This document shows positions 27,819-29,140 of a stretch of DNA of 64,000 nt, one piece after another. The notes under the pieces were generated by a model. It saw only the letters and a program-made list of their open reading frames with translations. It did no database searches and was not told where the DNA came from. The stretch is from the sequence record PZ583738.1, one strand, 5' to 3'. This stretch comes from a phage. The translations under genes and the position numbers were made by a program. Each line of letters begins with the position of its first letter. Position 1 is the stretch's first letter.

Positions 27819-28244
27819 ATGAACTTTCTGACCCTGACCTCTGCATTCTCTGTTACCCGCATCACTAACAAAATGGTTGCTGACGAAGTATGTGAAATCT
27901 GCATTCGTGAAGATGCACTTATCCATCTGACTTCAACCCAGATTGTTGCCATTGCCAAGTCTCTTAATTCTGAACTGAAGGTAAACACCAAACAGTCAAA
28001 AGAATCTATCATTGAATTAATCCAAGCTGAAATGATTGAATTCCCAATTGAAGAAGTTAAAGAAGAAAAAATCCAGTCCAAATCTGGTAATGCTCGTGAC
28101 ATTTGCTTCCAGGCATTTGCAGAAATTGATATGAATGATAATGCTGCTCGTCGCGCTCTGATTGATGTTCTGGTTACCACCCATGATATCAAAAAGACCG
28201 TTGTTCAGTCTTATGCTTCCAACTTCCGCAAAGCTCAAAAATAA
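27819..28244 (+). CDS. hypothetical protein, paralog A of a shared C-terminal-domain pair
   Basis: 141 aa; C-terminal about 50 aa (NARDICFQAF..AARRALIDVLV..VQSYASNFRK) homologous to C-terminus of ORF 28697-29140. Confidence 0.55.
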   Translation: MNFLTLTSAFSVTRITNKMVADEVCEICIREDALIHLTSTQIVAIAKSLNSELKVNTKQSKESIIELIQAEMIEFPIEEVKEEKIQSKSGNARDICFQAFAEIDMNDNAARRALIDVLVTTHDIKKTVVQSYASNFRKAQK

Positions 28245-28253
28245 TTGAGAAAA

Positions 28254-28291
28254 GTGTTTTACTTCCAGGTGGGATAATGTATAATTATCCC
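28254..28291 (+). promoter_or_regulatory. early promoter with stem-loop (PeSL-like cassette)
   Basis: -35 GTTTTAC, -10 TATAAT, inverted repeat GGGATAA..TTATCCC. Confidence 0.55.
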
Positions 28292-28326
28292 ATACTGAGT
28301 TACCAAATAAAACACTGGAGAATAAA

Positions 28327-28623
28327 ATGTTTAACGCACCTGCATGGCACGCTACCCAAGCTCAAGAAGAAAACAAAGCAATCATTTCTGCTAAAATTGA
28401 AGCTCAACTGAATGAATTGTGTGAAACTGCTTCTGAAGAAGTTGTTGCAATCATCAAACAGTATCCTGCATCCAACTACTCCCTGGCATGCATCAAAACA
28501 GAAATGGTTAACTTGTGGCGTAAGAACAAGAAAACTTTCTTGGGTATGCAGTACCAAGCAATCGCGACTGCAGTAGTAAACATGTATGACTTTGAAGTTT
28601 ATTTCCCAACTTCTGAAAATTAA
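28327..28623 (+). CDS. hypothetical protein
   Basis: 98 aa; ATG with SD GGAGAA; no motif recognised. Confidence 0.5.
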   Translation: MFNAPAWHATQAQEENKAIISAKIEAQLNELCETASEEVVAIIKQYPASNYSLACIKTEMVNLWRKNKKTFLGMQYQAIATAVVNMYDFEVYFPTSEN

Positions 28624-28624
28624 T

Positions 28625-28654
28625 ATGTACTTTGAAATTTAACTAAGACATAAT
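28625..28654 (+). promoter_or_regulatory. early promoter (PeSL-like cassette)
   Basis: -35 ATGTAC, -10 CATAAT; leader identical to those at 28291 and 47098 (CCATACTGAGTTACCAAATAAACAAACGG). Confidence 0.5.
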
Positions 28655-28696
28655 GATTCCATACTGAGTTACCAAATAAACAAACGGGATAATAAA

Positions 28697-29140
28697 ATGA
28701 AAACTTCAAAACTGGTTAAGTACGTTAAACTGGCATTAAACAACTCTTCTGAAGCTGAAGCACAATCCGCAGCACGTATGTTCTTCAAACGTCTGACAGC
28801 TGAAGGTATTTCATTTAACCCGGCAGTATTTGGTATCACTCGTGGCGAAGCTGCTAAACTGGCAACTCTGGCAGGTAAAATTTTTAAAGGTCTGAATGAT
28901 GAGCAGGTTAAACCAGAAGTTAAACCTACTCCTAAAGCTGAACCAAAAGCTGAACGTAAGGCACCTAAACGCTCCGGTATGAGCAACAAAGATTTGTGCT
29001 ATGATATGTTCAAAACTGTTAATATGTCTAATGGTGCTGCTCGCAGAGCTGTTATTGATATGATTGTGCGTGAGTTTGGATTCAACAAAGCATCAGTTCA
29101 GTCTTATGCTTCCAACTTCCGCAAAGAATTTGAAATTTAA
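28697..29140 (+). CDS. hypothetical protein, paralog B of a shared C-terminal-domain pair
   Basis: 147 aa; lysine/proline-rich linker then C-terminal domain (NKDLCYDMF..AARRAVIDMIV..VQSYASNFRK) homologous to ORF 27819-28244. Confidence 0.55.
   Translation: MKTSKLVKYVKLALNNSSEAEAQSAARMFFKRLTAEGISFNPAVFGITRGEAAKLATLAGKIFKGLNDEQVKPEVKPTPKAEPKAERKAPKRSGMSNKDLCYDMFKTVNMSNGAARRAVIDMIVREFGFNKASVQSYASNFRKEFEI

Follow-up and report, generated by a model that had tools for sequence, protein, structure and literature searches.

Why two neighbouring genes of one phage carry the same C-terminal domain on unrelated N-terminal halves, and what this domain does, is the question raised by positions 27,819 to 29,140 of a 64,000-nucleotide stretch of phage DNA (sequence record PZ583738.1), the whole of which is called the window here. 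The window is 93-98% identical to Gaprivervirus T4-like coliphages (VR7, VR20, VR25, SP18 and others). The two genes, p1 and p2, are located just after the tRNA-Met and tRNA-Arg genes (26004-26156) and a DUF7338 gene, and all the features described here are on the + strand. We propose that p1 and p2 are small early proteins of a family defined by a homeodomain-like helix-turn-helix (HTH) C-terminal domain, the third helix of which most likely binds DNA, and that they would act as non-essential modulators of the nucleoid or of transcription, a reading to which we give about an even chance.

A shared C-terminal domain on two N-terminal modules

Both open reading frames (ORFs) are present on the + strand where an earlier note on this DNA had placed them, and can be divided as follows:

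27819-28244 (+): p1, type A, phrog_9997, 141 residues; N-terminal module (residues 1-77, three strands plus a helix-extension-helix, HeH), acidic disordered linker and shared C-terminal domain
28074-28241 (+): shared C-terminal domain of p1 (residues 86-141), with helices at residues 92-100, 108-122 and 126-140
28697-29140 (+): p2, type B, phrog_18416, 147 residues; all-helical N-terminal module (residues 1-68), disordered basic lysine/proline-rich linker (residues 61-96) and shared C-terminal domain
28967-29131 (+): shared C-terminal domain of p2 (residues 91-145), with helices at residues 97-105, 113-127 and 131-145

The earlier note had described the two proteins as ending in a homologous domain of about 50 residues. 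Pairwise alignment bears this out, the similarity being significant (BLASTP, 43% identity over 75 residues, E = 8e-18) and an ungapped core of 46 residues being 50% identical; moreover, the motifs D[IL]C[FY], AARRA[LV]ID and VQSYASNFRK that it had listed are found, every one of them. The N-terminal halves are unrelated, as had been supposed: they share no tblastn similarity, and hhalign gives a probability of 0.4% for the profiles of the two N-terminal module families. Regarding their composition, the N-terminal half and linker of p1 are acidic (isoelectric point, pI, about 5), whereas the linker of p2, KIFKGLNDEQVKPEVKPTPKAEPKAERKAPKRSGMS, is rich in lysine and proline, with a net charge of +5 over 36 residues and a pI of about 10 for the protein. 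Within the 64-kb window, the shared domain occurs in two copies only.

Over their full length, p1 and p2 match the PHROG profiles phrog_9997 (E = 1.5e-71) and phrog_18416 (E = 1.6e-91), respectively. The C-terminal domains of both also match the 71-residue phrog_17275, a standalone paralog, and cross-match all three PHROGs, each of which is annotated as of 'unknown function'. No family covering the shared domain was found in Pfam or NCBIfam, and no experimental work on any family member was found in the literature. A word-indexed protein search with a 57-column, two-sequence alignment of the domain returned no matches, the query being probably too short. In metagenomic phage contigs, both proteins are matched over their full length by homologs of 51-62% identity, which keep the N- and C-terminal modules and vary in the length of the linker. 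In the p2 homolog of EAWsc9 (L001:3714-4181), the lysine/proline-rich linker is 8 residues longer through expansion of an AEPK repeat. The annotation of this homolog as a linker histone H1/H5 (H15) protein was rejected, no match to the Pfam family Linker_histone being found at E <= 1; the label 'H15 domain' reflects solely the low-complexity linker rich in lysine, proline and alanine.

The N-terminal module of p1 is made of three N-terminal strands and an HeH resembling Rho_N/SAP; Rho_N itself (PF07498) gives no match at E <= 10 and the Pfam gathering score is not reached. The N-terminal module of p2 is all-helical and carries an LALNNSSEAEA motif. Residues 12-34 of p2 (LALNNSSEAEAQSAARMFFKRL) give a sub-threshold match to DUF2786 (PF10979; E = 0.036, positions 12-34 of 40), scoring 14.4 bits where the cut-off is 23.9, and a protein with the same module, ORF038 of Yersinia phage P744, scores 12.3 bits; we take a possible relation to DUF2786 as a lead only. 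A match of this module to T7 Gp2 (E = 0.53) was taken as noise.

An old two-gene module

An exhaustive HMMER search with a 13-sequence profile of the domain against 1.84 billion cluster representatives yielded only 13 genuine family clusters, with proteins of 69-198 residues. Three architectures are found (i.e., type A, with N-terminal module A, linker and C-terminal domain; type B, with N-terminal module B, lysine/proline-rich linker and C-terminal domain; and the C-terminal domain alone). Standalone proteins have 69-74 residues (P0031 and P0035 are examples), and P0026 and P0032 look, by eye, like proteins with divergent type B N-terminal modules. In Gapriverviruses, the third paralog is of the standalone form and is encoded about 96 kb away, outside the window, directly upstream of motA (VR20_272). 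This gene (71 residues, L003:3001-3216) ends 3 nucleotides before the start of motA (L003:3219-3827), in the early block motA-arn-asiA. The corresponding slot of T4 holds the 49-residue motA.1, judged unrelated by length and annotation alone, and a tblastn search with the C-terminal domain returned no T4 record.

A uniform hidden Markov model (HMM) search of all fetched loci shows that type A and type B genes are adjacent in five phage lineages. Besides the Gapriverviruses, these are a divergent T4-like contig (L007), in which the same DUF7338 and 197-residue genes flank the pair; Morganella phage MP1, with the gene order reversed; Erwinia phage RF1, with an HNH-like ORF in between; and contigs of about 45 kb with a quite different genome plan (Terminase_6N, Phage_portal_3), in which the type A gene, a 44-residue ORF and the type B gene form a small + strand island between - strand blocks. 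The ORF inserted in RF1 encodes 167 residues (L004:4174-4677) and shows HNH-endonuclease-like motifs by eye. Within the fetched flanks, Acinetobacter phages of the ZZ1 type and Salmonella Rosemountviruses (BP63) have only type A. It had seemed that the N-terminal module of p1 occurs without the C-terminal domain in Salmonella phages of about 52 kb; this was rejected, BP63_11 being a full-length homolog with a divergent C-terminal domain (E = 5e-7 with the C-terminal profile).

The identities of the C-terminal domains follow these types, with 64% between p1 and the type A protein of RF1, 59% between p2 and the type B protein of L007 and 46% between p1 and p2. As the identities track orthology, types A and B predate these phages, and the two genes form an old conserved module that has moved as a unit between phage groups.

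Modules have also been exchanged. ORF038 of P744 has a type B N-terminal module, matching phrog_18416 at positions 1-66 only (E = 6e-20), and a C-terminus that the profile of the shared domain does not recognise. The same other C-terminal domain is present in ORF036, two genes upstream (BLASTP, E = 1e-7), behind an N-terminus with a sub-threshold HeH of the Rho_N type (E = 0.004); in the phage collection this alternative domain is rare, with 2 records. The arrangement of two N-terminal modules with one C-terminal domain per genome hence recurs, in one genome, with a different or unrecognisably divergent C-terminal domain. Together with the standalone form, the presence of a type B module on another C-terminal domain indicates that module exchange has occurred in this family. 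The earlier note had seen domain shuffling at this locus. What stands is that one C-terminal domain is carried by two non-homologous N-terminal modules, exists alone and has a case of exchange in P744; what does not stand is a local or recent event, given the orthology across five lineages. The idea was right in kind and wrong in timescale.

A short tract of identical codons

One part of the two domains is identical at the nucleotide level:

28203-28232 (+, in p1) and 29096-29125 (+, in p2): 30-nucleotide tract GTTCAGTCTTATGCTTCCAACTTCCGCAAA, encoding VQSYASNFRK, identical in both genes

All ten codons of the tract are the same in p1 and p2, compared with 7/13 for the conserved residues elsewhere in the domain. 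At its synonymous sites, the third paralog and ZZ1 diverge from the tract, as do the two RF1 genes from each other, and the similarity of p1 and p2 runs past the stop codon of p2 into the next copy of a promoter cassette that is repeated along the locus. These features would be expected if the two genes resembled each other through recent intragenomic recombination or gene conversion via the flanking cassettes, rather than through an old shared domain. However, outside the tract, nucleotide identity falls to about 50-60% and protein identity to 46%, and orthologous pairs are found in distant phages lacking the cassettes (RF1 and the 45-kb contigs). Recombination is therefore highly improbable as the main explanation, which the orthology pattern refutes, and survives only as a local conversion tract. 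Indeed, identical codons here and synonymous differences in other paralogs and phages mean that the tract is probably a short gene-conversion tract, which looks as if it had been seeded from the repeated cassettes. Conversion accounts for the last 10 codons only and not for the sharing of the domain overall.

Fold of the shared domain

Structure prediction with AlphaFold2, using family alignments, gives three helices for the C-terminal domain of both p1 and p2, with predicted local distance difference test (pLDDT) values of about 85-90 for the domain, disordered linkers, and means of 85 (p1) and 74 (p2) for the whole proteins. The predicted models form a three-helix bundle with HTH geometry, and the folds that they match best and most consistently are those of HTH domains bound to DNA; the BEN domain and the RecX repeat are structural neighbours. 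In the viral structure library BFVD, matches are limited to uncharacterised members of the family.

Profile searches point in the same direction with weaker scores. One single-stretch match was obtained in the PDB, to the homeodomain 2da3 (E = 0.017), and no curated HTH family of Pfam or NCBIfam gives a significant match. The domain profile weakly matches a 710-residue repeat protein (P0037), whose repeats Pfam calls HTH_23/homeodomain-like, and hhalign aligns the helix 2-turn-helix 3 segment of the domain with these repeats (DVLVTTHDIKKTVVQSYASNFRKA and EEILEKYKIKKSTLQTYLSQARKR; probability 66%, E = 5.6e-5). Several other candidates were set aside: PDB matches to TAL effectors (E values down to 1e-15) are an artefact of summing over repeats, each single stretch scoring below 5 bits with an i-Evalue above 300; a match to the CT847 effector family, which reaches 16 bits where 200 are required, and weak matches to HrpF, PBP_like and Med25 were taken as noise.

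In helix 3, V46, Q47, S48, Y49, S51, N52, R54 and K55 do not vary across the alignment; nor do one Cys and one Phe of helix 1 or one Arg of helix 2. From helical periodicity, V129, A133 and F136 of p1 should point to the core, leaving Q, S, S, N, R and K of helix 3 exposed. The domain is basic (pI 9). Taken as a whole, the fold evidence points to an HTH-type, homeodomain-like domain that probably binds nucleic acids; the earlier note had thought of a shared effector or targeting domain.

The shared domain could also serve another purpose. As a protein-protein module, it would either address both proteins to one conserved host protein (for example RNA polymerase, sigma or a nucleoid protein) or hetero-oligomerise the paralogs, the N-terminal modules being effectors. 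This alternative, which is the main rival to DNA binding, is possible but in our judgement unlikely: the best fold matches are DNA-bound HTH domains, the alignment of helix 2-turn-helix 3 to HTH_23 and the basic charge favour nucleic acid, and both the HeH and the basic lysine/proline-rich linker are typical of nucleic-acid binders. No link of the shared domain to a host protein was found. The present data do not separate the two readings.

Promoter cassettes and the gain and loss of neighbouring genes

From the annotations of relatives, the locus is the variable interval equivalent to segB-tRNA-e of T4. A cassette of about 75 nucleotides precedes p1, a 98-residue ORF, p2 and a downstream junction. 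In it, the -35 element reads GTGTACA/GTTTTAC and the -10 element (C/T)ATAAT; the invariant leader CCATACTGAGTTAC and a stretch rich in A then lead to a Shine-Dalgarno (SD) sequence and the ATG. The features around the two genes are as follows:

27678-27694 (+): intrinsic-terminator-like stem-loop with T-run, closing the upstream DUF7338 gene before the p1 cassette; -12.6 kcal/mol, z = -3.7
27738-27818 (+): cassette 1; promoter TGTACA-17-CATAAT (27738-27766), leader 27771-27784, SD GGAG at 27808
28258-28326 (+): cassette 2; TTTACT-16-TATAAT, leader 28290-28303, SD GGAG at 28317
28327-28623 (+): 98-residue ORFan, phrog_27242, between p1 and p2; without the shared domain and dispensable
28627-28696 (+): cassette 3; weak -35 TGTACT, -10 CATAAT, leader 28659-28672, SD GGGA
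29146-29223 (+): cassette 4; G5/C5 stem-loop (29146-29165) overlapping the -35, TATACA-17-CATAAT (29152-29180), leader 29185-29198
29247-29840 (+): 197-residue coiled-coil ORF, phrog_1203; the EAWsc9 annotation reads 'uncharacterized protein in e-segB intergenic region'

The exact 14-mer leader starts at 27771, 28290, 28659 and 29185, and is present in six copies in the window for 0.28 expected by chance. The repeated cassette does precede both p1 and p2, as the earlier note had claimed. A scan for sigma-70-type hexamers calls three of the four cassettes; the -35 of p2 (cassette 3) is too weak to be called, and we thus infer the p2 promoter from the homology of the cassettes. Among the stem-loops, those at 27678-27694 and 29146-29165 (z = -2.6) stand out, the loop of the latter holding the next -35 element, and the fold scan finds no stable stem-loop upstream of the 98-residue ORF or of p2 (i.e., at the two internal cassettes). 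Within 27601-29300, neither the T4 late promoter TATAAATA nor a MotA-box motif is present, from which early expression may be inferred. The SD sequences of p1 (27808-27811) and of the 98-residue ORF (28317-28320) are GGAG, and p2 has GGGA. In T4, the RegB endoribonuclease cleaves early mRNAs at GGAG, and VR20 encodes regB.

This setting brings up a further alternative, namely that p1 and p2 are packaged internal head proteins (IPs) or other virion-associated proteins. The tRNA genes stand on one side of the locus and e on the other, with several ip genes close by in VR20; both proteins are small, and p2, which begins with MKT, is strongly basic. Yet there is no late promoter in the interval, no obvious T4-type motif for capsid targeting or cleavage was recognised by eye, the folded HTH and HeH modules do not resemble IPs, and the pair is also found in non-T4 phages of 45 kb, in its separate small transcription island. 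We give almost no credence to this possibility.

Beyond the locus, the leader is found at 47098-47111 and 47687-47700 of the window, where two further ORFs (47135-47341 and 47719-48243) carry the cassette; the first encodes a 68-residue protein with a basic tail (...PKPLPKRRRK). The leader also occurs at L003:2956, at L007:2828 and 3372, and at L019:1826, 2336 and 2699, and precedes the standalone paralog adjoining motA. In an exact scan of IMG/VR with the 14-mer, matches were mostly single chance occurrences. The leader CCATACTGAGTTA(C/A), the -10 element and the GGAG SD are invariant in three diverged T4-like lineages (Gaprivervirus, L007 and MP1), in which the downstream proteins share no more than about 45-60% identity with p1 and p2. 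That the leader is so much better conserved than the coding sequence suggests that the 5' leader has a function of its own. Binding of the HTH proteins to the cassette leader was considered and is not supported, phages of the RF1 type keeping helix 3 without the leader motif, although in the T4-like phages such binding may still occur.

The cassettes also mark the places where genomes differ. The segment of the 98-residue ORF (28330-28649) is absent from EAWsc9, with breakpoints at 28329/28650, and from a 171,541-bp IMG/VR contig (L012). Conversely, gp140 and gp139 of VR20 (776 bp) are missing here, with the junction to VR20 and EAWsc9 at 29211-29223, the 3' end of cassette 4, where '...ATAAAAT' adjoins the ribosome-binding site native to the 197-residue ORF, which in T4-like phages is conserved as the gene downstream of the pair. 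Cassette 4 ends with ...GGATAATAAAATATT instead of ...ATG (29209-29246), and a second ribosome-binding site then serves the 197-residue ORF; this interval is the scar left by the 776-bp difference from VR20. Differences in gene content from close relatives thus break exactly at cassettes, which is consistent with gain and loss mediated by PeSLs, composite early-promoter/stem-loop elements that flank ORFans in the hyperplastic regions of T4-type phages (PMC2839356, PMC4122927).

Further downstream in the window (31109-32130), four tandem small ORFs (96, 93, 70 and 74 residues) all end in W(V/H)(S/P)SS..C; they have the look of local paralogs that share a conserved Cys motif at the C-terminus.

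Proposed role

The early genes of T4-like phages are for the most part ORFans without a known function, and many of them reprogram the host. In the reading that we prefer, all the paralogs would use, soon after infection, the near-invariant exposed face of helix 3 (VQSYASN[F/Y]RK), which is polar and basic, to contact one common ligand, most likely DNA, and the differing N-terminal modules and linkers would supply a second contact, to nucleic acid or to a partner. The proteins might then act as non-essential modulators of the nucleoid or of transcription, in a role comparable to that of MotB of T4, while recombination between cassettes would add and remove neighbouring ORFans in the hyperplastic region.

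A bolder version can be formulated, in which type A and type B would each be one half of a single device for early host takeover, with a shared address domain, exchangeable jointly in both, that sends two different effector modules (the HeH type, and the DUF2786-like one with its basic tail) to one site. ORF036 and ORF038 of P744 would then be an example of joint exchange, and the standalone paralog next to motA could be a competitor or a regulator for the same site. We regard this version as quite improbable.

What is defined here is a compact, near-invariant three-helix domain in three architectures, with an A and B pair kept by phage groups that are not related to each other. For ORFans of hyperplastic regions such persistence is unusual, and it implies selection for joint function. 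If the family binds DNA or a host factor, it would be a new family among the few characterised early phage modulators of the nucleoid or of transcription. Moreover, the locus provides a clean example, in a third T4-like lineage, of cassette-mediated gain and loss of genes. The family is uncharacterised and belongs to a familiar class (i.e., small mosaic proteins made early by phages, with HTH-like domains and encoded in a hyperplastic region rich in cassettes), and the finding is moderately interesting for its conserved pairing and its invariant helix.

Comparison with known systems

Relative to known homeodomain-like and HTH_23 domains, the shared domain is set apart by a Cys of helix 1 that never varies and by the signature C-x3-F ... 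VQSYASN[F/Y]RK, both specific to the family. Similarly, the N-terminal module of p1 differs from Rho_N, SAP and HeH modules in having three extra N-terminal strands, which lie outside Rho_N.

The cassettes resemble PeSLs in that repeated intergenic early promoters flank ORFans in a hyperplastic region, some stem-loops made of a G-run and a C-run overlap the -35, and insertions and deletions end at cassettes. They depart from them in that a stem-loop accompanies just two of the four local cassettes, and in that their most conserved part is the transcribed leader (CCATACTGAGTTA ... GGAG) and not the stem-loop. Their -35 is of the T4-early GT(G/T)TAC type, not the sigma-70 consensus.

The closest parallel to the proteins themselves is MotB, an early, non-essential DNA-binding protein of T4 that alters complexes of H-NS with DNA and whose homologs keep one C-terminal DNA-binding domain with alternative N-terminal domains (PMC7827196). 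Like MotB, p1 and p2 are small, probably early proteins from a non-essential region of T-even phages, and the evolutionary pattern and the type of role that we propose are the same. MotB is nevertheless built from KOW and OB folds, not from HeH- or DUF2786-like modules and an HTH, and has no sequence relationship to p1 and p2; its binding to DNA has been demonstrated experimentally, whereas that of p1 and p2 is predicted.
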